Origin: a virus
Lineage: Duplodnaviria > Caudoviricetes
Length of the DNA stretch: 64,000 nt
IMG/VR virus record: IMGVR_UViG_3300013383_000014
Location: 1-64,000 of that record
Reading direction: 5' to 3' (one strand)
Below the pieces are notes generated by a model. It saw nothing but the letters and a program-made list of their open reading frames with translations, made no database searches and was not told where the DNA came from. Below are positions 28,208 through 56,603 of this stretch, piece by piece. The translations under genes were made by a program, and so were the position numbers. The first letter of the stretch is position 1, and the number at the start of each line of letters is the position of its first letter.

Positions 28208-28250
28208 ATAGAATTTTTCAATGTAAAATATTTATAATCAATTAGTTAGG

Positions 28251-28322
28251 CACCCTCGGCCCGAATCCAACAGGCACTTAAGGATTTGAAGTCCCCAGTT
28301 CTAAGCATTAAACTACGAGGGT
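28251..28322 (-). tRNA. opal suppressor tRNA, anticodon UCA (probably Trp-charged)
   Basis: ACCCTCG/CGAGGGT acceptor; GGGGA-CTTCAAA-TCCTT anticodon arm; short variable loop; A1-U72 and G73 as in tRNA-Trp. Confidence 0.9.
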
Positions 28323-42628: not shown

Positions 42629-44026
42629 CTACAGAATTATCTGAGAATATCTCTCGGAATTTATTGTTCTTAGCATAACTGCCATAGGAGAAAGATCGTC
42701 TCCACCAAGAACTGATTGTACAATTGCTGGCGAGTAACCAGAAACAAGAGCGCAATTCTTATCAGCAAGAGTAACAGGCATATTATTGCCACGTCCTTCT
42801 ATATTCCAAAAAATCAACCCAGGCCTTTCATAGCCTGCATTTTTAAACTTCTCCTCGATTGCTTCAAAATTCGTCTTATCTGCCTGATTCATAACACAAT
42901 CAATCTCCATATCACTAAGTATCAATAACTTAGTAGGAAGATCTTCTTGAGAAAGATGACATTCTATTACTCGCCTAAGAATAAGATCAAAAACTGCTTG
43001 CAAGTCTGTGTTATAACCCTGTATATAGTTTTTAATATATTCAAATTTTGCAAATATGTCATTGCCGGTAAGAGTAACTATTTCTGGTTTTTCTGAGAAG
43101 GTCATAAAACAGTTATGAAATGGGCCTTCATTGTGTTCTGCAAGATATACTCCGAGAGCAACTGAAACATCGATTGGTTGTACCTTCTGTGCAGGGTTTC
43201 CCCATTTCATACTACCAGAAACATCACAAATTGGCATAATGCGCTCCTTGCAACCAGCCATAAAGTTTGGCATATTATTCCAAAGTGCTCGAACTGCATC
43301 TTCTTTTAAAGTACCATGTCGATAATCTGCATATATATCACTTGGAAAGAGAACCGATGCGTTAATTTTTTGCTTGCCATTGTTAACTGCTTGTAAATAA
43401 GCAGAATAACGAGCAGGATCGTGCCTCCCAAATGTTCCAGAGTAAATACGTGATGCCACACTAGGAACGGTACTATACTCAATCTTGCTCCATTTTCTAG
43501 CACACATTAATTGTTCTACAACTTGTGTTCTATTCACAATATGATGCCTAAAAACAGTTGGAGTAAATCCAAGGAATTGACGCAGTTTCAAAAACCACAA
43601 ACCCTTTCGAGGACAATATTTTGCACAAAGTGAATGATCTTCTTCGTTAATAAGCGTGTTAGCTATATAACGAACAGGTTCATCTGTTGGTTGAAGTTTG
43701 TAAAGATCTTTCCAATATCCATATTCCGGAACTAATCTGAAGATTTTTGAAAAGATTTCAGGCCTATGTTCTTGCAACCAAGAAAGACAAATCTGAAAAT
43801 TCTTTTTTGTACCAGCACCACCTCGGCAATCACGGGACCAAAATAAGATCCGAATTGCTAATTGCTCATTTTCTCCAAACGCGGAAAGAAAAGAGCCTAA
43901 CATATCTTGGTGATTTCCTGCAATTGCAAAGAAATCTAGACATTTGTTGAGTGTTGTACTGTTTGTGATTGCACCGTTTGCTGTGTGAGCATTTTTGGTG
44001 CTGATTGCTGAAATGAAGTTATCCAT
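42629..44026 (-). CDS. DUF2828 family protein (TROVE/Ro60-related helical domain plus vWA)
   Basis: NGA.T.STT..CLDFF, RDCRGGAG, EYGYWKDL, AKY.PR, Y..VPS.A, DVSGSM MIDAS, SDME.D, IFWN, SGYSP. Confidence 0.85.
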   Translation of the reverse strand: MDNFISAISTKNAHTANGAITNSTTLNKCLDFFAIAGNHQDMLGSFLSAFGENEQLAIRILFWSRDCRGGAGTKKNFQICLSWLQEHRPEIFSKIFRLVPEYGYWKDLYKLQPTDEPVRYIANTLINEEDHSLCAKYCPRKGLWFLKLRQFLGFTPTVFRHHIVNRTQVVEQLMCARKWSKIEYSTVPSVASRIYSGTFGRHDPARYSAYLQAVNNGKQKINASVLFPSDIYADYRHGTLKEDAVRALWNNMPNFMAGCKERIMPICDVSGSMKWGNPAQKVQPIDVSVALGVYLAEHNEGPFHNCFMTFSEKPEIVTLTGNDIFAKFEYIKNYIQGYNTDLQAVFDLILRRVIECHLSQEDLPTKLLILSDMEIDCVMNQADKTNFEAIEEKFKNAGYERPGLIFWNIEGRGNNMPVTLADKNCALVSGYSPAIVQSVLGGDDLSPMAVMLRTINSERYSQIIL

Positions 44027-44789: not shown

Positions 44790-44942
44790 AAAAGAAATTG
44801 CGATTATTTCAAAATTTTGTTTCGTTATTATCATCAGGGAATTTTTCCTCGGGTTTTTCATAGCCTATGTTAGCAAGGATTGCACAAATTCCCCAGATAA
44901 TAAATGGAAGAGCAATAATTATGCCAACTATTTTTGCGTACA

Positions 44943-45503
44943 TTATTTCACAATTTTATCTACAAGACCGTAAGAGACTGCCTCTTCTGCGGAAAACCAA
45001 CGATCTCTATCAAAATCATTCCAGATCTGGTCAAAAGATTGTTTAGTTTTATCTGCAAGAATCTGACAGAGTTCTTTCTTCATTTTTTCAAGTTCTTTCA
45101 TATCGATGAGCATATCTGATGCTTTTCCTTCAGTCCAACCAGATGGCTGATGAATAAGAACCCGTGAATGAGGAAGAATGGATCGTGTAGCACCGTTTAC
45201 GAGAAGAATTGAACCCATTGAAGCTGCCATGCCAATGCATATAGAATTAACTGGAGATTTAATTAGGTTCATTGTATCGTAGATTGCTAGACCAGCAGAA
45301 ACAGAACCACCAGGAGTATTGAGGTAGAGTTGGATAGGTTCGTGTGATTGTGAGTCTAGATAGAGGAGTTGCGCAATTATTGTATTGGCAACATCATCGT
45401 CTATTGGCATGCCAAGAAAGACTATCCTGTCTTTTTGGAGCCGAGAAAACACATCTAGTGTTATTAGATGTGTGTTTCCAGATTCAAGTATGAATGGAGT
45501 CAT
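44943..45503 (-). CDS. clpP: ATP-dependent Clp protease proteolytic subunit
   Basis: DVFSRL..DRI.FL, AQLL.L, YLNTPGG.V..G.AIYD, GMAASMG, IHQP, RD.W.SA.EA..YGL.D. Confidence 0.95.
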   Translation of the reverse strand: MTPFILESGNTHLITLDVFSRLQKDRIVFLGMPIDDDVANTIIAQLLYLDSQSHEPIQLYLNTPGGSVSAGLAIYDTMNLIKSPVNSICIGMAASMGSILLVNGATRSILPHSRVLIHQPSGWTEGKASDMLIDMKELEKMKKELCQILADKTKQSFDQIWNDFDRDRWFSAEEAVSYGLVDKIVK

Positions 45504-46797
45504 AATTTTTCTGCTTTTGCGTGTTGGCCAATTATATCAAACTCTGGAAAGACAATTGCTATATCAACTCTATTGCCTACTACATAAAAGACATAGCGTA
45601 GATTGCGTACACCTTCTATTACATAGGTAATAGTTGTGAAGCCGTTTTCTTGCTTGATTTGTGCATCAATCAGTTTGAAACAGACTTTCATATTAGGACG
45701 ATCTACGTAGACCATCTCTTTGTCTGTATCTACTGTGATTTTGATATAACCGGAAATTATTTTTGTATTCGCTTGATTTGTGAGATCATTAGAATAAAAA
45801 ACCTGTGCCTGAGAAGCAAGTCCCAAGCATAGGAAAACAATTATGAATATTAGGCGTCTCATTTTGTTTCATTCTTAACGAGCCTGTGATCAGGTAAGAG
45901 ATTGGTCTTACATGGAAGAACCTGCCAATCCTTTACCTGGTTGCCATTTTTGTCCTGCTTGTACTGAAAACGCTTGATGAAAAACTTAGTCATGATTAAT
46001 TGTATTTATGAGTGTTTTGATTGCTTTAGAGAATTTAGCCAGATCTCTTAGTTCTGGAAGCAGTTCAATCAGTTCATCAATTGGAGTAGTCTGCTTTACT
46101 ACAGCAATTGGTTTTGGTTCACATATTTGATTGCGTGACTCCTCTATAAGAGAGATGATCATTTTCTCGTTTGGTTGTGCTATACCATTACGAAAACGAA
46201 TTTTGCCGTTTGTTGTTTTGATTAGCATTTTACGAGATACTCCCTCGTTACGAAGTCTTTGGGCATTAGTAGGAGATACTATACCATTTAAGGCTTTGTA
46301 GAGTGAGGTAGAGTAATTCGGATCCTCTTTTGATTTGAGCCATATAATATGGAACTGATGAACAATTTGACTAAGTTTAGCCTTGTCAGTGAGTTTTGTT
46401 CTGGGACACCCGATACGAGTGGAGCCCAGATTTGTTTCTTGCATTACTGTTTAGTTGTGATTGGGCGGATAGCATATTCTACGTGTTTCGTGATTCCATC
46501 TACTACTGTAGCGGTTTCTTGGATACGATTTTCATAATATGCCTCCATGGTTTCTTGTACAACTTCTTCACGCTGGATTTTGAGTTCACGCTGATAAAAG
46601 TTGTAGATTTTTTGTTTCTCTTGCTCGTTTTTCACTTGGTTGGATTTATAGAGACCCAGACCAGTAATTGTGAGAATAAGAGAAAAGATTGTGAGAACAA
46701 GTGCGACAATGTCACGGACAGAGTACTTGTTCCAAGTGAAGAGAATGAACAGCGTAAGTGCACAGAGCAGGATTACGGCTGTAATTAATGACCACAT
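45500..46797 (-). other. hypothetical ORFs (45500-45862 with signal peptide, 45986-46444, 46444-46797 membrane)
   Basis: ORF track. Confidence 0.6.
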
Positions 46798-47011
46798 TTA
46801 ATGGGAGATTAAAATTGATTTTTGTGATTTTTTAGGGCCTTTTGAATAAAAGTAGTGTAGGATAGGCCCTCTACATGCATCCTACGCTCATTATTTGCTT
46901 ATTACCGGGTAAAAATAACTACCTAAAAAAATATAAAAAATAAAACTAAATTATATATAGAAGAGAAAAATCGTTAACTTATTTTATAACAATTAATTAG
47001 CGATTTTTTAA

Positions 47012-47053
47012 GGTTGTTGTGAGCTAACTTTTGGTTGCTGTGAGCTAACTTTG
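47012..47053. repeat. 2 x 21-bp direct repeat GGTTG[TC]TGTGAGCTAACTTT
   Basis: Copies at 47012 and 47033. Confidence 0.85.
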
Positions 47054-47090
47054 TTTATTTTTTTATAAACTTTGTTTGGAAAATTTCGTC

Positions 47091-47243
47091 ATTAAGTATA
47101 GTTTGGATTAAGTATAGTAATTAAGTATAGTTAGTTTGACTTGTGGAGTTTTATATTGACTTGTAGAGTCTTTTATTGACTTGTGGAGTTTTATATTGAC
47201 TTACGTAGTTTTTCTTTGCATAATTGTTGCATAATTGTTGCAC
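47091..47243. repeat. iteron-like region 1: 3 x ATTAAGTATAGT, 4 x 20-bp TTGACTTGTGGAGTTTTATA-type repeats, TTGCATAATTG repeats
   Basis: 12-mers at 47091, 47107, 47120; TTGACTT at 47136, 47156, 47176, 47196. Confidence 0.9.
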
Positions 47244-47308
47244 ATTAAATATTTTTTATATAAATTTGCAATAATTAAAAGATAGTAAAACTACTAAAGT
47301 CAATAATC

Positions 47309-48013
47309 ATGTCTGAAAATCAACAATGGGTAGCATACCCACATGCCGAAAATGTTGGCAATGATCTAGAACCACAAGATAAGCTAATATACTTAGCTAT
47401 AAGAAGATACATGAATGAAGATACCATGCAAGCATATCCGTCATACGCTAAAATAGCTGAAGATACTGGAGCTGCGCCCCGTACTATTTTAAAATGTGTA
47501 CAAAACCTAATTAATGCAGGATATCTAGCTACTAGTAAAAAAGGTCGAAAAATTGTTTATCAATTTAACAACAAAAAACAATTCGAGGCCTTTTCTTATG
47601 ATTTTCTAGATAAAAAGGATCTTTCTTTTACAGAAAAATCATATATTGTTGCGACACAACAACATATGTTCAAAGATCCAATTAGAGAAGAGGGAAGAAT
47701 TTCTTATACTAATGCTGAATTATCCAAAATAATTAATATGCCAGAAGCAACAATATCAAAATGCAATAGATCACTACAATCCAAAGGATATATGGATTTA
47801 TCTGACCCAAATACAAAACGATTTCAGTTACGAGAACTAGATCAATTAATTATATGAAAACTCAAAGAGCAAGACGATCGCCTTAATAGACAAGACAGTC
47901 GACTTAATCAACATGACTCCGAGATAGAAATGCTCAAACGAGAAATTGCCCAACTCAAATTGGAAAATAAAGAGTTAAGAAAAGAAAAGATTTTAAAAGC
48001 ATATACTTTTTAA
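47309..48013 (+). CDS. HTH replication-initiator-like protein 1 (code 4, 234 aa)
   Basis: IY.AIRRYMN..T.QAYPS...IA..TG (HTH_36-like), second HTH, C-terminal coiled coil after TGA 47855; promoter TAAATTTG 47261-47268. Confidence 0.75.
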
Positions 48014-48015
48014 AA

Positions 48016-48048
48016 TAAAACCCGTCTTTCATAGGCGGGTTTTATTTT
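48016..48048 (+). terminator. intrinsic terminator
   Basis: AAAACCCGTC...GGCGGGTTTT. Confidence 0.7.
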
Positions 48049-48186
48049 TTCACAACAGGGTAAAAATAACTACCCGAATATATGTGAGGTGCAATGTACT
48101 TGCAGTACACCCACGCTTTTTCTAGACTGGAGAACCACTTGCGGTCTACACAAGTTTCTCCACGGTATATGAGAAAAGTCATCGCC

Positions 48187-48310
48187 ATTAAGTATAGTTA
48201 TGTAAGTATAGTATAAGTATAGTTCTTGGTACAAAATCAGCCACAGGTAGTTCATTTTTAGCCACAGCCTGGTCATTTATAGCCACAGGTAGTTCAAAAA
48301 TAGCCACAGC
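48187..48310. repeat. iteron-like region 2: 3 x TAAGTATAGT and 4 x 21-bp AGCCACAG-core repeats
   Basis: 10-mers at 48189, 48203, 48214; AGCCACAG at 48239, 48260, 48281, 48302. Confidence 0.9.
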
Positions 48311-48387
48311 TATTATAAAATAGTTGTATAAAAAGTTGCAAAATTAAACTTTTATTACTATATTTGCATTATTAAAAATAGAAAACT

Positions 48388-49113
48388 ATGGATGAAATTA
48401 TTTTAAACCAGAACCAATTTGTTATTCTCCCCAAAAAAGAAGATGGAGAATTACTACAAAAGTACGAGATATTGGTATATGTTGCAATACGTCGATTTAT
48501 GAATAAAAAGACAATGCAAGCATATCCATCCCTAGATAGAATTGTTAAAGATACTGGAATTTCAAAGGCTACTGTTATTAAAACAATTAAAGAAATTGTT
48601 AATAAAGGATATATGACAACTGAATCCAAGAAAGGAATTGGTGTTACATATACTTTTAATAACGAAAAGTCTTTTGAACCTTTTAGTTATGAATTTTTAG
48701 ATAATCCAAATCTTACAAAGGCGGAGAAATTGCAAATACTCTGTACTCAACAATATATGTTTAAAGATGATGGTGTTGGAAAAATATCATATACAGATGA
48801 AGAACTGTCAAAAAAGACAGGCCTTAATCGACATGCTATAGCAAAAACAAATAATTCTCTTGTAGAAAAAGGTTTTGCAACACAAGTTTCCTTAAAAACA
48901 AAAGACCCACAAACTGGTCTTATGAATAAAGAAACTATATATCATCTTAACGAGCTTGGGCAAGCAATTGTTTTTAAACTGAACGATCACGAAACTCGTA
49001 TTGAAAATAACGAACAAAAAATCTCATCTCTTGAGAAAGATAATGAAATTCTTCGTAGGGAGATTGATGAACTCAAACGACAAATGGCCCAACGAACCAT
49101 TTATAACTTTTAA
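48388..49113 (+). CDS. HTH replication-initiator-like protein 2
   Basis: Clear paralogue of 47309 (AIRRFMN..TMQAYPS, FE.FSY.FLD, TQQ.MFKD); promoter TATATTTG 48359-48366. Confidence 0.8.
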   Translation: MDEIILNQNQFVILPKKEDGELLQKYEILVYVAIRRFMNKKTMQAYPSLDRIVKDTGISKATVIKTIKEIVNKGYMTTESKKGIGVTYTFNNEKSFEPFSYEFLDNPNLTKAEKLQILCTQQYMFKDDGVGKISYTDEELSKKTGLNRHAIAKTNNSLVEKGFATQVSLKTKDPQTGLMNKETIYHLNELGQAIVFKLNDHETRIENNEQKISSLEKDNEILRREIDELKRQMAQRTIYNF

Positions 49114-49116
49114 TAT

Positions 49117-49151
49117 AAAATCCCACTAATCATCACGACTAGTGGGATTTT
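49117..49151. terminator. bidirectional intrinsic terminator
   Basis: AAAATCCCACTA...TAGTGGGATTTT between convergent genes. Confidence 0.75.
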
Positions 49152-49158
49152 GTCGTAT

Positions 49159-49746
49159 TTATGCCTCTACACACACGAGTTTCTTCGTATACGCAACAAG
49201 CTTTTGTCCTTTTGTCTCAGACTTAAAAAAGTTGTACTCAGGAAAATCTTCTCGAACTTTTTCTGAAAAGGCTTTCAAATGCCTTTTTATATCTTCAGGC
49301 TGAGTTACATATATTGGCATTTCTATTTCAGCCAGTTTAACGTCTTTGTATTCGAATCTATACTTTTTCATGATATTTATTTTCTAGCATTGTACCTATT
49401 ATACTCCATATAATCATAGCGACCCCTATTACAGAGGCCGCTATTCTTATATCCATATCACCGGGAATTACTCCGACTATGCAGAGTAATATCCCTATGA
49501 TTAGAAAACCTAGCATACGGTCAATTTTAGGATTGACCGTTTTACGGTGATCACCTTAAAAGTGTTACCGTCTCCACAATGAACAGTGTCTATGTGAAGA
49601 GTGTCCCACTTTATTTGGTAATCCTTGAGTGCCGCTTCAAACATCCTCTGGCACTCTCCTATTTCTGAGGATGTTGCATTTACCGGACAATTGCATGAAG
49701 CAACTACTTCCGTCGTCCGGTCGACGTTAAAAATTAATGTTTCCAT
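49159..49746 (-). other. small hypothetical ORFs (49159-49371, 49510-49746)
   Basis: ORF track. Confidence 0.55.
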
Positions 49747-49784
49747 AATTGTTTTGTTTTAATTGTTTCTTTTTAGCAGATTTA

Positions 49785-50255
49785 GTTTCGTTTCCTACTT
49801 ATCTCCCAAGCCACGTAAAGGCACTGCTTATTTTGGGAGTACAAACAAACTACTTGTTGCATGGTAGCTTGTTTGTGATGCGCTTCTTGTTTTATTGTGC
49901 GCTAATTACGCGAGGGCCAGTTAAACCCTATGATTTCTCATTCGGCAGATAACGCGACCCCTGCCTTGCCTAGGATGCAACAATCCTAGACTATTGTACC
50001 CATAACACCGATCAAAGTGTTATGGATAAATCTGTCTTTCCAGATCGTCAACAAACACCATCATATGAACAATAGAACACAGAGCAGATTTCACTCTACT
50101 CTGCATTGACGAACCCAGTAATTGAATATCAGTCATTTCCTTGTGCATGTACACAAAATACTACACGGAAATAACCAAATTCTCCTTTAGGCCATTCATT
50201 ATAATTACTTATATGAAATGTTCCCAAAGGAGAGTTTAGTATTCAATCATTGAGA
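49785..50255 (-). ncRNA. candidate large structured ncRNA (~470 nt); strand inferred from flanking genes
   Basis: At least ten consecutive or nested stems in a gap with no convincing ORF. Confidence 0.6.
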
Positions 50256-50276
50256 GTTCCAGGAATTGTGAGTATG

Positions 50277-50744
50277 TTAAACATACTCAACAATTCCCAT
50301 AGGCCGCTGCTGATACTTACCATCAACACGCTGCCCATTTTCGAAGACTGCCAAATCAACAGTCTTCATTTCGGTGCACTTAATGCTCTTGCCACGAAGA
50401 GTATTATACACCTCTGCGAAAGACGGCAGATATGACAGTTCCTTACGAACCGCATCAAGCGGCTCATTATGTCCATCCCTACGGGTAAGCGTAGAAATAG
50501 ACAGCCATGATGGCTTACCGTTACGTTCAACCGCAACGTAATAAGCCAATGGGGAATCCTCAGACTCCCTGATTTTCTGAGAAACCACAAGTGGGTTCTC
50601 ATCCGGGAACTTAATAATATCCCCGAGGTGGAGTGCGAATGCTCCGCCTGAAACGCCGATTGTTTTAAGGTTGTCGGCAGCAACCTCTGATACTGGCCTG
50701 CTCTGCTGACCTGGCAAAAGCGGCATCTGTGAAAGTGTAAACAT
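50277..50744 (-). CDS. hypothetical protein, paralogue of 50941-51414
   Basis: Shared MFT start, GD, A.E.NGK, L.GK.[IL] segments. Confidence 0.75.
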   Translation of the reverse strand: MFTLSQMPLLPGQQSRPVSEVAADNLKTIGVSGGAFALHLGDIIKFPDENPLVVSQKIRESEDSPLAYYVAVERNGKPSWLSISTLTRRDGHNEPLDAVRKELSYLPSFAEVYNTLRGKSIKCTEMKTVDLAVFENGQRVDGKYQQRPMGIVEYV

Positions 50745-50940
50745 AAAAATAAATTTAAGTTAATAAATGTGTACTACTTATACTACGAAAGTAATGAGTC
50801 TTAGTTGAAGGGAGGAAAATTATAAAAGGGAGGGAAAGTCCCTTTTATATGAGTCTTTAGTGTTTTTTTTAAAGAAAAACCTACCCCGAGTATGGGGTAG
50901 GTTAATGCTAATCGCAGGAGTTGTCGTCGACTCAGACAAC

Positions 50941-51414
50941 TTAGAAATTAAACACCGCAAACTTGCTGTTTTTATAAACATAATTGCGGTTTGTGAAGTC
51001 GCTCTTGGCAAAGTCGAAAGACTTGCCATCAACAAGCTCAACAACCGTGAGCGTCTTTCCCTTGAGGAGTTCATAACGCTCATAGTCGGAGCCGTTGTAG
51101 AGCGGCTTCATTTGTGGATATGCTTCGAAGAACTTCTCAGTATCCACAACTGGGAAGTTCCTGAACGCGCTCATAGGAATGAGCGTGTTCTTGCCGTTGA
51201 TCTCAGCGGCAATATACGGAATGTTCCGGTCTTCCGTCTTACCGTCGACAGTTTTTACCTGTCTGGTTTTGGAGTATATCTGATCTCCGAGCACGACCTT
51301 GTCGCCCTTGAAGAAGTATACTCCTTGTCTTGATCCTGATTTCGACAGGATCTGAGCCGCCTGAGCGGCTTCAACCTTGTTGAAGCCCTCAGGAATATAA
51401 TCTGGCGTAAACAT
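50941..51414 (-). CDS. hypothetical protein, paralogue of 50277-50744
   Basis: As above; visibly more GC-rich than the rest of the window. Confidence 0.75.
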   Translation of the reverse strand: MFTPDYIPEGFNKVEAAQAAQILSKSGSRQGVYFFKGDKVVLGDQIYSKTRQVKTVDGKTEDRNIPYIAAEINGKNTLIPMSAFRNFPVVDTEKFFEAYPQMKPLYNGSDYERYELLKGKTLTVVELVDGKSFDFAKSDFTNRNYVYKNSKFAVFNF

Positions 51415-51600
51415 AATAATGATGTTGTAATGAAAAATTTAGTCTTAGTTATCTTTTTTATTTTTCATCTCCCAAAATCCTAGAAATAATCTTAGTTTCA
51501 AAATCGTTTTCCCACAGCGAAACCCCGGGGGTCTTCTGAATATAGTATCCATTTCTCCTCAACATATATACAATTTTAAAAAAATTATTATCTTTGCACT

Positions 51601-53191
51601 ATGGGAAAAATAAAACACAACGACTACTATGGCTATGTTAATAAACTTCAAACATACGCCATTTAGCATCCAGAATGATTCTGGAGTGATGATTCTAAAG
51701 CACAAGAAGCTCGCCAGTGGTTATATAACAATAGCGCTAGTGCTATAATAGATACGATCTACGATGAGACCCCAGATAATCTCAAGCCAAAAGATCGTAA
51801 AAAAATGGACAAAAGATCGACAAGAAAAAGTCGGAACTAAAGAAATGAAAGATAAAATACATGAAGGTCAAAAGGAGTTTCTAAGTAATGCGTTTGACAC
51901 AACAATGCGATCTATGAATATACTTGGTACTCCACTTGATTTTTATGCAAACCAAAAAAGTAATGGAGATTATCAAACTTTTGGAGAACTAGTTCGCAAA
52001 GGAAATGATTGAGGTGTAGCCGGAAATATAGGTGCCGAATTTTTAAATCCAGGAAATGCAGTAGACCTAGCCTTAGGTTTATACGGAGTAGGCCAAGGAA
52101 TTAAACAGGGGGTTAAATTGGCAAAAGAATATGCTCTAGCCGTAAAGCAAGCTGTAAAAGACTTTAATTGAAAACTTGGCCCACAAACTTGAAAACAAGG
52201 CGACGAAGCTGTTAAGATGTTTAAAAAATATGGAACTCAATCACCAGTAGAAGCATCCCCTTTAATGGAAAGAATAAAAAAATACGTTCCAGAAGCAAGG
52301 GAAAGATATGGACTTGTTGGAAGAGACGACATAACGGATGACGAGATAGCGGGAGCTTTATATAAGAAAGCAATGTCTCTTTCTAAGCCTGGAAATGCTG
52401 CTGTAAATGAATTTGGGGAACCACTGTTGTTATTTAGGGGCGATACGCGGCGATATCCAAGTTTTAGACCCGTACTCACTCCAGAAGAATTAGCAAAAGG
52501 ACGCGGCTCGATGGATAATGCTTTTGGAAACTTATTTCTAGGGGATTTAGGAAAGGGGGAAGAGGGCGTAGAGCGATATATAAATTATGTTTTAGAGCAA
52601 CCGAGTGGGTATCGACAACTGAGACCATCTGCAACTGGGGATAAGGTTACTTTTAACGGCATAAGAATGGATGTAGATTTTGATGAGCGTGCAATTATAT
52701 TACCTAAGAGTGCTATTGGATATGATATAAAACCAATGCAAAAAAGAGGCGGCATCCAAACTAGAATTAGAAAAGTATCTCCAAGTGTAGTTGAATCGGG
52801 TGTCAACGACATTAACGCTTTTGTTATAAACACTGGTAATGTTAGAGATGCAACTATGGAAATTTCTCCAGAAATGGGAGGTCACTTTATAACGATTGAC
52901 GGAAAGCCCAAATTTAAAAATGCAGATGGGGTTGATAGGCCTGCTGCTGCAAAGAGAATTGAAGAAATATTAAACGACGCGCAGCAAAAAGGCGAGGGTC
53001 TTCTTTTATCGAAAAAAGATTCTCCTTTAAGGCAGCAGGAGCACACATCTTATGATTATTATGCTCTACCTAATTTTAATATAAATGGAGCAAAATCAAT
53101 TTTGCCATATGATTTAAATAGACCAACATTTCCTTTTATAGATAGAGGACTTTTATATAGAAAACATGGAGGAATTATAAAAAGGAAATAA
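51601..53191 (+). CDS. putative ADP-ribosyltransferase (ART-PolyVal-like) cargo protein; continuous code-4 frame 51764-53191; 5' part broken by TAG 51664 and a +1 shift near 51790
   Basis: NEFGEPLLLFRGD resembles the DENGEPLVVYHG ART-PolyVal signature; C-terminal YRKHGG; promoter TATCTTTG 51589-51596. Confidence 0.55.
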
Positions 53192-53192
53192 G

Positions 53193-53231
53193 AAAAATCG
53201 CAGTACTACTTTTGTAGCGCTGCGATTTTTT
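53193..53231 (+). terminator. intrinsic terminator
   Basis: AAAAATCGCAG...CTGCGATTTTT. Confidence 0.75.
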
Positions 53232-53234
53232 GCT

Positions 53235-53392
53235 TTAAGTCTAGTTCATTAAGTCTATTAAGTATATTAATTATATTAAGTATTGTTAGAGTCCAGTTTA
53301 GAACAAAAGTAGTCCAATCTAGAAAAGAAGTAGTCCAGTTTGAAAAAATAGTAGTCCAATTTGGAAGCGGAGTAGTCCAGTTTAGAAAAATA
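53235..53392. repeat. iteron-like region 3: TTAAGT[CA]TA repeats and 5 x 21-bp GTAGTCCA-core repeats
   Basis: 9-mers at 53235, 53249, 53258, 53267, 53276; AGTCCA at 53290, 53311, 53332, 53353, 53374. Confidence 0.9.
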
Positions 53393-53479
53393 TATTTTTA
53401 TATAAAAATACTTGTTTGTATGTAAAAATATTTTTAACTTTGTAAAAATAGATATTTTAATATAAAAATTTATCAAAAA

Positions 53480-54217
53480 ATGCAACATGTAGAAATTCCA
53501 AACGAGTTAATTAATTTAAAGAGACAAGGAAAATTAGAACAAGGAGATCAAGTTATTTTTGCCGCAATTAAAAAATATATGAATTGGGATACTAGAGAAT
53601 GCTATCCGAGTATTACTACAATTTCAAAATCGCTTAAATGCAGTAGAACAAAAGTTCTCGCAGCAATAGATAGATTGTGTGAAAATGGACTTATACAAAA
53701 GAAAAATAATGGAAAAGGTTCAAGCAACTCTTACTTGTTTGTTAGAACCGAGTTTGATAACTTTTTTGAGATGTTTACAGAAAGCTTTTTAAAAATAGAT
53801 ATGCCGCTTAACGTGAAAGAATATTATATGGGAATTCAACAATTTTTATATGGAAAAGACTCCGGAGTTGGACGTTGCACTCTTAGTAATTCAACATTAT
53901 CTGAAAAGTTAGGGATTAGTAAACTTTCCGTTAAAAAATACAACACATACCTTATAGAGCACGGGTTTCTTGAAGAAGAAACCATGAATAAGACAGACGA
54001 AGCCGGATTTCCGATGATACAAAAGAATTTTGATCTTAATAGCTTGCAACAAGCAGAGTTATGGGCACGTGCCGTTACGCAGCAGGTTATACAAAACACA
54101 TCGGATATAGAAGATATGAAAAAAGAACTTGCTGAACTCCGTGAATGAAAACAGAGAAAGGAGCGCGAAGAAGCTCTTGAAAGAAATAGAGTGGAAACAC
54201 ATACATATAACTTGTAA
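53480..54217 (+). CDS. HTH replication-initiator-like protein 3 (code 4, 245 aa)
   Basis: AAIKKYMN..TRECYPS..TI, FE.F...FL, QQFL; coiled coil; promoter TAACTTTG 53435-53442. Confidence 0.75.
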
Positions 54218-54249: not shown

Positions 54250-55323
54250 ATGAAAATTAGAAAATACCAAAACTCGGGAGACTTGCCTTACATGCCTGCT
54301 GATAATACGGCAGTTGCATGAAATCCTCAAAGGAAAGAAACTATTGTTGCTAGACAATACACCCCAACACAAGAATTAGATATTACCGATAATCCGATGG
54401 GGTATGCTCCGGTAGTAGGAGATATCTTACAAGGAGGACAAGCAATTATAGATTTTTCAAATGGAGACTGAAAAAAAGGTGCATTGAATCTTGCGTTACT
54501 TGCAGTTCCTAATGTAATTGAGAGGCCAGTAAAAGCTGGTATTAAGGCATTAAAACAAATTCCTCGGAACGAAATAAAAAGAGCGGCTCGAAAAGGGGCG
54601 AGAGATGCTGATCGGTTTTTAACCAGTGACCCAACAAGAGCTTCTATTCAAAGAAATATAGATCTTTTTCTAAAGAATAAAGAAAAATATAAAAATATAG
54701 ACTGGTCTCCAATTTCCCAAGACGAAATTGAAACTGCCTCGTTTTATTCTCCAAGAATAAAAGTAAAAAATCTTGGTACAAAACGAGGCGAATCAAAAGT
54801 TGCAGTAGATGACAATGGGAGATTTTTAATTTCAATGAAAGAATCTATTCCAAACGGCGGAAATGAAATTATTGTGAATTTAGATCATACTGCGTCTAGT
54901 GCTAGGTCGACAGGATTTCATGAAAGATTACACGTGCTTGGCTACGGAGATGCCTCTAGTAATCCAGTTAACTCGGAGTTGGGGCTTTCTTTATTTAAAC
55001 CAGAAACAGATATGCACTCTCAAGCTGCTGTGGATTATATGAGATATTTAAAAGAGCCTCACGAAACAGCTGCGTGACTCGCACAAACCGGATACGAACT
55101 AGGATTAAGATCTGGCACACCATATCCCGGAGTAGACGGGGTTAAAAAATTCATAGAAAAAAATAAAAATCAAACCAGACTTAATTACCTGCTTAATTTC
55201 TTAAAATTAGACTCAGAGGAAAATTATAAGAAATTATGAAAAGGCCTGACTGGAACATTGTATACTGGCATAGTGGTATCAACTCTAAATTCTGAAAATT
55301 ATGCTCCCAATGGATTGTACTAA
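54250..55323 (+). CDS. zincin-like metallopeptidase-domain cargo protein 1 (code 4, 357 aa)
   Basis: FHERLH (HExxH) with downstream E (PHETAA); N-terminal KIRKYQNSG; pre-toxin-like APVVGD..GDW segment. Confidence 0.7.
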
Positions 55324-55531
55324 AAAATTAATTTTTTGAAAAATTCACAAGAAGCCTGTTCCAGATTTTTATAAAAAAACCCTTCAATATTTTGAAGGGA
55401 TTCGCCCAGCAGTATTTTATGAAGAAGAGGATAAGGCAAAAATAATTTCAAAGAAAATAAATGAACCAATCGAAATTGTTAAAGAGTCGATCGAATATCT
55501 AGTAAGCAATAGCATAATTGAGTTTTACTAA
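55301..55531 (+). CDS. small partner protein 1 (code 4, 76 aa)
   Basis: MLPMDCTKKLIFW(TGA)KIHKKPVPDF...ESIEYLVSNSIIEFY; paralogue of 56581. Confidence 0.7.
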
Positions 55532-55532
55532 T

Positions 55533-56603
55533 ATGCCAATACCAAAATTTTGAATAGACTGGAAACGCAAAAGAGATCAGGAAAATCTCGAACAGGCGCT
55601 ATATGAAAAGATAGACAAAGATAGGGAACTAGAAGAAAGGCAACACTCTCTTCCAGAAGAGAAGCCACTAGAGCAAGAACATCCTGCAATGGATGTTGCT
55701 CTTATATGGACGCAGCCAGGAGGTTGGCTTGCAAAAGTTATGGCTCCTGGTGCTTATAAAGCACTTATAGAAACGGCTATATCCGGAAATACAGAGGACT
55801 TATTGTATAGTGCAACACCGGTTGGGAAAACAAAGTTTGCAGCAAAGACTCTCGAAAATGAAATGAAGGCCTCCGCAAATAAAGGTGTGCGCGATGCCAA
55901 TGCTTTTGTTAAAGACCCAGTAGTGCAGGCGTCTATACAAAGAAATGCAGATTGATTCACGAGACAACAAGCGCTAGGACAAACACAAATACAATGACCT
56001 GCAACTCAGGCTGGTGAATATATTACTCGCGCAAACACGTCTCCAAAAATAGAGCTTGTTGATCTGGGAGTTGTTTCAAATGGGAGAGGGGCTTATGCAA
56101 GAGTTCTACAAGACGGTACAGAGAAGTTTATTTTTACCCCACAAACAATACGTGCTGGATATTCAAATAAGATTGATATAAATAAGAACTTACCAATAGA
56201 AAAAGTGGAGTCAACTGCTTTTCATGAACGACTTCACACCCTTGGATATGGAGATCTTGGATCAAATCCCGTGAATGTAGATATTGCGAATAAAATCTGA
56301 AAATCATACAGCGAAGTACCTGCCCAACTGCACGAGGAGCTAAAATATCTAAAAAACCCAACTGAGACCGCAGCGTGGCTCTCCCAATCTGGCAAAGAAT
56401 TAGGATTAAAACCCGGCTCTAAATATATAGGTAAAGATGGGCTAGAAAAACTCATAACAAAAAACGAAAGACTTAGCAAACTAAAAAAATATTTCAATCT
56501 TCAAACAGAAGATGATTATAAAAGACTGTGGTCCGGTCTAACGGGAACTCTTTTTGGAACAACTGTAATTGTTAATAACTATGGTGGAGCTGGGGGTGAA
56601 TAA
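55533..56603 (+). CDS. zincin-like metallopeptidase-domain cargo protein 2 (code 4, 356 aa)
   Basis: FHERLHTLGYGD..SNPVN, PTETAAW; C-terminal half paralogous to 54250. Confidence 0.7.

Follow-up and report, generated by a model that had tools for sequence, protein, structure and literature searches.

Putative iteron-type origin and initiator cassettes of an HTH_36 protein family with a RepE-like fold in a TGA-recoded phage genome

The record IMGVR_UViG_3300013383_000014 of a gut phage (Duplodnaviria; Caudoviricetes) is a single contig of 165,723 bp with 35% GC. Its first 64 kb (positions 1 to 64,000, hereafter the window) contain three paralogous cassettes, in each of which short AT-rich repeats and an array of phased direct repeats precede a gene for a protein of about 240 amino acids (aa). 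We propose, with a probability of about 0.55, that these cassettes act as iteron-type origin/initiator modules, whose proteins form a new HTH_36 lineage with a RepE-like fold, a reading drawn from sequence, a structure model and analogy with plasmid replicons. Its strongest support comes from the match of the whole-chain fold, the plasmid-like order of elements, a constant AT-rich repeat that abuts variable iterons, and the absence of other target sites in the genome.

Anatomy of the cassettes

One order of parts is common to the cassettes: three copies of the short repeat TAAGTATAGT, four or five iterons of 20–21 bp, a TAnnTTTG promoter motif, and an HTH_36 gene of 234–245 aa. The original prediction, made from the letters of the window, had described this layout three times, and repeat analysis together with the sequence itself recovered all three cassettes at their predicted places. 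Cassette 1 begins with an AT-rich leader that holds two 21-bp direct repeats (GGTTGYTGTGAGCTAACTTT, 95% match; 47012..47052, + strand). Three exact TAAGTATAGT repeats follow (47093..47131, +), forming a constant element that resembles a DNA unwinding element (DUE), and then four private 20-bp iterons with the unit TTGACTTG and the core TTGACTTGTGGAG (47136..47215, +). Two 11-bp repeats, TTGCATAATTG, lie between iterons and promoter (47216-47237), and the motif TAAATTTG, of the Bacteroidota −7 type (47261..47268, +), stands 40 nt before the ATG of initiator-like gene 1 (47309..48013, +; 234 aa, with TGA as Trp183 at 47855-47857). The gene ends in an intrinsic terminator (48012..48052, +; −19.9 kcal/mol, z −8.5).

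Cassette 2 has three exact TAAGTATAGT repeats (48189..48223, +), four private 21-bp iterons with the unit AGCCACAG and the core AGCCACAGGTAGTTCA (48239..48322, +), to which the cores of orthologues are related, and the promoter motif TATATTTG (48359..48366, +) 21 nt before the ATG. Its gene 2 (48388..49113, +; 241 aa) has neither TGA nor Trp, and is likewise closed by an intrinsic terminator (49112..49160, +; −19.2 kcal/mol, z −6.3). In cassette 3 the short repeats are degenerate (TAAGTCTAGT, TAAGTCTATT, TAAGTATATT and TAAGTATTGT; 53236..53286, +). They are followed by five private 21-bp iterons of the form (G)TAGTCCA with the core GTAGTCCAGTTTAGAA (53288..53392, +), the motif TAACTTTG (53435..53442, +) 37 nt before the ATG, and gene 3 (53480..54217, +; 245 aa, with TGA as Trp223 at 54146-54148). 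Promoter-like sites were thus present in all three cassettes, as predicted. Terminators had been claimed for cassettes 1 and 2; they were folded directly because the terminator rule of the scan had missed both of these + strand terminators. Direct folding gave none after cassette 3. A sigma-70 promoter scan performed no better than on shuffled sequence (32 versus 26.8).

The short AT-rich repeat was said to be shared by all three cassettes. This is exact for cassettes 1 and 2, which hold all six perfect copies of TAAGTATAGT in the window (0.22 expected; none of 100 shuffles reached six), while cassette 3 carries one-mismatch variants only (at 53236, 53259 and 53277). The triple element is 80% AT and has no C in its top strand. 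In every cassette it directly adjoins the first iteron, and it is predicted to melt. The phased arrays do differ from one another as claimed, and each iteron core is confined to its own cassette across the 165.7 kb. A genome-wide search for arrays with a period of 20–22 bp and at least three copies returned seven, five of which are the cassettes described here together with a RepL cassette (see below).

Two further sequence motifs were considered. Between promoter and start codon of cassette 1, CTACTAAAGTCAA (47291-47303) agrees in 10 of 13 positions with an inverted cassette 1 iteron and could be a candidate operator. This copy is weak, and no inverted half-iteron or operator-like inverted repeat was found at the promoters of cassettes 2–4; some relatives close their array with an inverted iteron copy. 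A sequence in cassette 2, TTAGCCACA, matches TTATCCACA at 8 of 9 positions and was examined as a DnaA box. This reading was rejected, as it fits only one of the four iterons and its CCACA is altered in orthologues.

A count of three proved too low. Searching the whole genome with tblastn revealed a fourth cassette, and an orphan array and a RepL-type cassette also lie outside the window. Cassette 4 (genome 116015-116998; L132:516-1499) is inside a + strand block, at a position conserved in the related genome G005. It comprises five TA(A/G)GTATAKT short repeats, five 21-bp TGGTCAwTTTATT iterons, the TATATTTG motif, a gene of 243 aa (genome 116267-116998) whose product is 56% identical to that of gene 3, and a terminator. 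The orphan array (genome 147.7 kb, − strand) consists of three TAAGTATAGT copies, a pair of GAAAATATATGCGCA units and TGCGCA in inverted orientation, without a gene after it. Arrays of its type do precede a family gene in other phages (L079, L114), and tblastn with the L079 protein detected no gene remnant at the site. Directly upstream, on the same strand, is a RepL-family gene of 153 aa (PF05732; 26.7 bits against a cut-off of 20.3, E 4.5e-6, residues 6-148), whose cassette (genome 147798-148420) has its own four 22-bp TTATACTCCA repeats, promoter, gene and terminator. A second initiator family with the same layout in one genome counts for the origin reading. In this region (genome 147650-148420, − strand; L133) the orphan array comes right after the RepL terminator and is followed by ∼250 nt of non-coding DNA with hairpins; the region is a convergent junction and the skew maximum.

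The predicted gene length of ∼240 aa holds only if TGA is read as Trp; under translation table 11, gene 1 ends at 182 aa and gene 3 at 222 aa. Many genes of the phage are interrupted at TGA under table 11, and long frames are regained with table 4. The phage also encodes a tRNA with the TGA-suppressing anticodon TCA (28249..28322, −), in line with the restoration of long open reading frames (ORFs) by code 4. TGA is read as Trp genome-wide, and the suppressor tRNA is needed for full-length genes 1 and 3. Cassettes 1, 3 and 4 each contain one in-frame TGA, at non-homologous positions, and the TGA of gene 1 aligns to a Trp that is encoded as TGG in most relatives. The idea that TGA generally serves as a switch for removing the coiled coil was rejected: TGA positions vary among homologues, which mostly use TGG for the Trp where the helix begins. 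Clades of TGA-recoding phages of similar size have already been described (bioRxiv 10.1101/2021.08.26.457843; PMC12386605), and the searched passages of these two papers do not mention iterons or initiators. Two adjacent + strand genes of ∼357–361 aa just downstream of cassette 3 (54250-55323 and 55518-56603) have four in-frame TGA each. Both match the same stretch of G005 (∼35% identity) and are likely tandem paralogues, and neither has a family match.

The initiator-like proteins

The proteins encoded in the window are paralogous, as predicted, with identities of 43% and 31%. They match Pfam HTH_36 (PF13730, cut-off 25) at 55.7, 58.1 and 63.5 bits, and the fourth paralogue does so at 48.4 bits. 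Matches to the DnaD N-terminal domain (PF21984, cut-off 27) are marginal (27.4, 31.6 and 31.3 bits), and that of the fourth paralogue, at 25.2 bits, is below the cut-off. Phage_rep_O (PF04492, cut-off 28.7) matched P0003 alone, at a sub-threshold 21.2 bits. The best PHROG matches are annotated 'replication initiation protein' or 'O-like' and mostly cover the N-terminal winged helix.

Two helix-turn-helix (HTH) domains and a coiled coil had been predicted from the translations. An AlphaFold (AF2) model of the gene 2 protein, built from a 92-sequence alignment (predicted local distance difference test score, pLDDT, 93.5), agrees with this: it has an N-terminal strand, a first winged helix (WH1), a conserved linker, a second winged helix (WH2) and a coiled-coil-like C-terminal helix of 48 residues. 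The whole-chain model resembles iteron initiators. Foldseek against the PDB placed at the top RepE54 and the RepE complexes with iteron double-stranded DNA (dsDNA) and DUE single-stranded DNA (ssDNA) (8ac8, 8aan), with probability 1.0, E-values of 1e-5 to 1e-4, ∼215 aligned columns and template modelling (TM) scores of 0.40–0.49. In a viral structure library the first matches were two family members (TM 0.85 and 0.76), followed by 'Replication initiator protein' and 'Replication protein O'. A homodimer prediction for the gene 2 protein scored 0.28 against a mark of 0.42, which counts neither for nor against dimerisation.

Within the family, the N-terminal strand, helix 1, a YPS turn, the FExFSxEFLD linker and the tip of the wing are the most conserved parts; the wings, the recognition helices and the C-terminal helix vary most. 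In RepE and TrfA, binding of iteron dsDNA and of the repeated ssDNA of the DUE is simultaneous. The DUE strand of the RepE complex touches beta1 together with alpha1/alpha2 of WH1, a surface that lies opposite to the iteron-binding face (PMC10602881). The conservation maximum in the N-terminal strand and helix 1 would fit a scheme in which this face acts on the constant TAAGTATAGT element.

The proteins might instead be autoregulated transcription factors or DNA roadblocks without a role in replication, whose direct repeats control their own promoters and perhaps insulate neighbouring units. Taken singly, the winged-helix domains are nearest to LexA, CRP, MarR and BlaI (Z 8–10), and PDB and NCBIfam sequence matches include the small regulators AdcR, Lrs14 and Sta1, all far below cut-offs. 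The arrays lie just upstream of promoter motifs, and the cassettes are at boundaries of transcription blocks. However, this explanation leaves unaccounted for the constant AT-rich triple repeat in all paralogues and distant relatives, the whole-chain fold favours RepE over any regulator, and an operator-like inverted repeat is missing at the promoter in three of four cassettes. Since the predicted binding sites occur only at the proteins' own genes, a pure transcription factor would have nothing else to regulate. We regard this alternative, as regulators or roadblocks, as unlikely.

A second alternative is that the cassettes are centromere-like or pairing modules, in which the protein would cover its array as TubR, ParR or AspA do and the coiled coil would pair or position phage genomes, to serve a carrier or plasmid-like state, or packaging. 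The best solved relative of the family profile by sequence in the PDB is TubR of pBtoxis (E 1.2e-4, over nearly the full length of TubR), and AspA is matched too. Direct-repeat arrays upstream of the gene recall tubC and parC, and the modelled long C-terminal helix could bridge two arrays. On the other hand, the TubR matches are weak and span one generic winged helix. The genome has no match to Tubulin (PF00091)/TubZ or to AAA_31 ParA, a search that did not extend to actin-like ParM. Cassettes 1, 2 and 4 are each monocistronic, with a terminator after the gene, and four centromeres with four separate binding proteins would be without precedent. A segregation or pairing function is accordingly rated very improbable.

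Relatives, co-divergence and cassette turnover

The family is large. Grouped at 50% identity, 3,203 clusters match at E<=1e-3 and at least 171 do so at E<=1e-30; almost all of them hold proteins of ∼240 aa, and members are found on metagenomic contigs of up to ∼200 kb. A survey of copy number, which the original prediction had suggested, gave one to three strong copies in related IMG/VR genomes and a range of 1–4 between related phages. Upstream arrays are a regular feature of homologues: 33 of 33 distinct homologous cassettes carry short repeats, and every homologue inspected has the same layout. A blind scan of IMG/VR for two spaced copies of the 10-mer TAAGTATAGT yielded 72 loci. In 25 of them a family gene follows within 80–510 nt; the remainder comprise simple repeats, loci that are truncated, and canonical arrays beside which no gene was detected. 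Distant members have variants of the short repeat (TAAATATAGT, TAAGTTTAGT) and iterons of their own. In one distant relative (L136:1-80) three short repeats at the start of the contig are inverted, directly upstream of the family gene, and may reflect a divergently placed neighbouring cassette.

The expected covariation of repeat and protein was borne out: among relatives, iterons and protein co-diverge. Over the 18 cassettes that had clean arrays, mean iteron similarity is at background (0.45) where protein identity is below 60%, 0.62 at 60–75% identity, and 0.9 above 75%. For orthologues of cassette 2, whose core in the window is AGCCACAGGTAGTTCA, the iteron core reads AGCCAGAGGTAGTTCA in L047 (protein 83% identical to that of gene 2), GTGCAATACCC in L049 (78%), AGCCAATGGTC in L009 (75%) and AGCCAATACCC in L051 (67%).

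There was no DNA or protein match among INPHARED phages. The only match among PLSDB plasmids covered 64 residues, to DnaD-like genes of Bacillus prophages, so that there is no plasmid relative to rely on. GTDB genomes gave seven matches (L053-L059), all on contigs of metagenome-assembled genomes (MAGs), one of them 158 kb long, with mutually inconsistent taxa; MAG labels with family genes include Melainabacteria, Alistipes, Anaeroplasmataceae and Intestinibacter. These contigs are read as phage sequences misbinned into bacterial MAGs and therefore provide no host evidence.

Cassettes are gained and lost between relatives. That a cassette may be inserted, which had been suspected of cassette 3, holds at least for cassette 1 by blastn against L049. 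Window positions 44941-46923 correspond to L049 5676-7673 and positions 48055-49126 to L049 7654-8740, and since L049 has one copy of the junction that aligns to both window ends, cassette 1 is a discrete insertion of ∼1.15 kb (46924..48054, +) that L049 lacks. It is flanked by an exact 17-bp direct repeat, GGGTAAAAATAACTACC, with a left copy at 46907..46923 (+) and a right copy at 48058..48074 (+); this is the upstream sequence that cassettes 1 and 2 had been predicted to share. The right copy lies within, and is supplied by, the 3' end of a small − strand ORF (∼48040-48183). This ORF of ∼48 aa (MTFLIYRGETCVDRKWF...) is conserved in L049, and its start abuts the short repeats of cassette 2. 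No direct repeats of at least 9 bp flank cassettes 2, 3 or 4. The RepL cassette is bracketed by two similar sequences, each a gene end plus terminator, and cassette 4 is present in this genome (G000) and in G005 and missing where it would be syntenic in G001 and G002. In L047-L052 and G005, cassette 2 is found at a conserved position after the ClpP block, as a single + gene surrounded by − genes. The genes flanking cassette 3 have no clear syntenic relatives, and an exact-protein look-up for the gene upstream of it found no record.

Such turnover would also be expected if the cassettes were selfish, exchangeable mini-replicons or weapons in competition between phages, with the same Rep–iteron mechanism serving a different beneficiary. 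They would spread between co-infecting phages by Campbell-type or short-homology recombination, or their arrays would titrate or handcuff the initiator of a rival (incompatibility), and the phage that carries them would not need them. The copy number of 1–4 among related genomes, the clean insertion of cassette 1 between 17-bp repeats, the bracketing of the RepL cassette, the patchy occurrence of cassette 4, and an orphan array of a type that bears a gene in L079 and L114 are all compatible with this. Against it, cassette 2 stays in place and, like a core gene, diverges gradually along with the genome in many relatives; the cassettes contain no recombinase or nuclease; and direct repeats also arise by replication slippage or unequal exchange. 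We consider it improbable that the cassettes are chiefly of this kind.

Genomic context, proposed mechanism and significance

Cassettes tend to sit at junctions of transcription blocks. A location at the strand switch, as originally predicted, applies to cassettes 1 and 2 and not to cassette 3, nor to the cassette 2 orthologue of relatives, which is a lone + gene within a − block. The cumulative GC skew of this genome is lowest at 45 kb, close to cassettes 1 and 2, a placement compatible with the origin reading, and highest at 147 kb, beside the orphan array. The use of skew to locate an origin, proposed at the outset, does not single out the cassettes. G001 has a single cassette near the skew minimum, G002 has one at the maximum and another at neither extreme, and in G005 the skew forms a plateau around the cassette 2 orthologue.

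Several points weigh against an origin function. The orphan array of this genome and an intact cassette of G002 are at skew maxima, cassettes 3 and 4 lie inside + blocks, and skew tracks gene orientation and therefore neither supports nor refutes origin function. The orphan array persists at 147.7 kb without a gene. Pfam Rep_3 (PF01051) is not among the matches at E<=1 for any of the three window proteins, and TM-scores to RepE are below 0.5. A second aligner classes the single domains as generic winged helices (Z 8–10 to LexA, CRP and MarR), so the resemblance to RepE resides in the two-domain arrangement. No helicase-recruiting domain is visible in the proteins, and four or five origins, each with its own initiator, are not obviously of use to a lytic phage.

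If the cassettes are origins, they may function as follows. The RepE-like protein, as monomers or as pairs linked by the coiled coil, would bind its own four or five iterons, spaced two helical turns apart, and the bound array would bend the DNA. The bent array, together with the conserved protein surface (N-terminal strand, helix 1 and the FExFSxEFLD linker), would open the adjacent triple TAAGTATAGT element, and the opened element would recruit the phage replisome, including the DnaB-like helicase and Pol A, so that the origin fires. The phage encodes a DnaB-like (DnaB_C-like) helicase at ∼15.5 kb and Pol A at 17.7–19.7 kb, and its genes further include a DEAD/SNF2-type helicase, GroEL, NrdD and ClpP. 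In this scheme the conserved face of the protein would serve the constant TAAGTATAGT, and the variable helices would read the private iterons. Iteron specificity would lie in the recognition helices and wings, which vary, so that each protein would be expected to act on its own array alone and the pairs to be orthogonal. Cassette 2 would be the conserved module; as it has no TGA, its product could be synthesised ahead of the code switch. Cassettes 1, 3 and 4 would be accessory, gained and lost between relatives, and would depend on the suppressor tRNA for a full-length product.

A broader scenario, which we put forward tentatively and consider rather doubtful as a whole, is that a widespread clade of gut phages of 150–200 kb, several with TGA recoding, uses minimal replicons as exchangeable cassettes with a universal triple TAAGTATAGT, private iterons and a RepE-like initiator. 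Cassettes would enter by recombination that leaves short direct repeats, possibly by way of transient circles of ∼1.1 kb, would accumulate to four or five mutually orthogonal pairs per genome, and would decay to orphan arrays. If true, this would amount to a natural library of orthogonal origins, and to an intragenomic selfish replicon or an inter-phage incompatibility system of undescribed form.

TAnnTTTG is a type of promoter motif known from Bacteroides, and by likeness to those promoters the host may belong to the Bacteroidota. Just upstream of the cassettes, next to a tRNA cluster, are a DUF2828/DUF7788 protein (42629-44026, −; PHROG 'RNA-binding protein') and a ClpP-like protease (44943-45503, −), both conserved in G005 and L049.

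The cassettes share many features with the iteron replicons of plasmids. Two tandem winged helices are typical of RepE of mini-F (ori2) and of other Rep_3-type initiators (pPS10 RepA, R6K pi, RK2 TrfA). Replicons of that type also have 19–22-bp iterons at two-turn spacing, with the rep gene directly downstream. Flanking their iterons is an AT-rich unwinding element built of repeated motifs, to which the triple TAAGTATAGT would correspond. The order AT-rich repeats, iterons, promoter, gene is that of mini-F ori2/repE and of theta replicons of the pCI305 type. In contrast to Rep_3-type systems, the phage proteins lack a Pfam Rep_3 match and have the additional 48-residue C-terminal helix, the cassettes have no clear inverted-repeat operator and no recognised DnaA boxes, and the modules occur in four copies in a phage genome of 166 kb. 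By analogy, the pCI305 family of lactococcal theta replicons appears to be the closest functional precedent. In the seven such plasmids of L. lactis IL594 a conserved AT-rich region is followed by differing 22-bp iterons and the rep gene, and specific iteron–Rep pairs are thought to allow the seven homologous replicons to share one cell (PMC3138775). There, however, RepB (Rep_3) is encoded on separate plasmids, whereas here an HTH_36 protein is involved and a single phage genome holds the co-integrated modules.

Multiple origins or replicons are known from the phages P1 (RepA/oriR and RepL/oriL), SPP1 (oriL and oriR for G38P) and T4 (several origins), among others. Like P1, the present phage combines an iteron-type initiator, here putative, with a RepL-type gene, and like all three it would have several initiation sites per genome. 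SPP1 and T4 reuse one recognition system, while here there are four paralogues with private arrays and one constant element; P1 employs two unrelated systems for two lifestyles, unlike the four paralogues of one family found here. Lambda O/ori-lambda and O-like or DnaD-like initiators are comparable in their N-terminal HTH_36/DnaD_N winged helix and in iterons beside an AT-rich tract. The lambda iterons, however, are inside the O gene, O has a C-terminal P-binding domain, and the Phage_rep_O score of the phage family is sub-threshold.

If the cassettes are origins, the family would offer dozens of naturally orthogonal origin–initiator pairs on one scaffold, in at least 171 clusters (50% identity) at E<1e-30, and compact replicon parts of ∼1.1 kb for Bacteroidota, where such tools are scarce. 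With its constant element and varying recognition part, it would provide a data set for how winged-helix initiators read DNA, and could inform how a Rep protein couples iteron binding to the melting of a fixed DUE. It also raises the question of why a virus would carry several private initiators instead of reusing one, be it as a replication strategy, as selfish modules, or in competition between co-infecting phages. Even if the cassettes are not origins, their proteins would still appear to form a large group of phage DNA-binding proteins that lacks annotation, with cognate sites that can be taken directly from the sequence.

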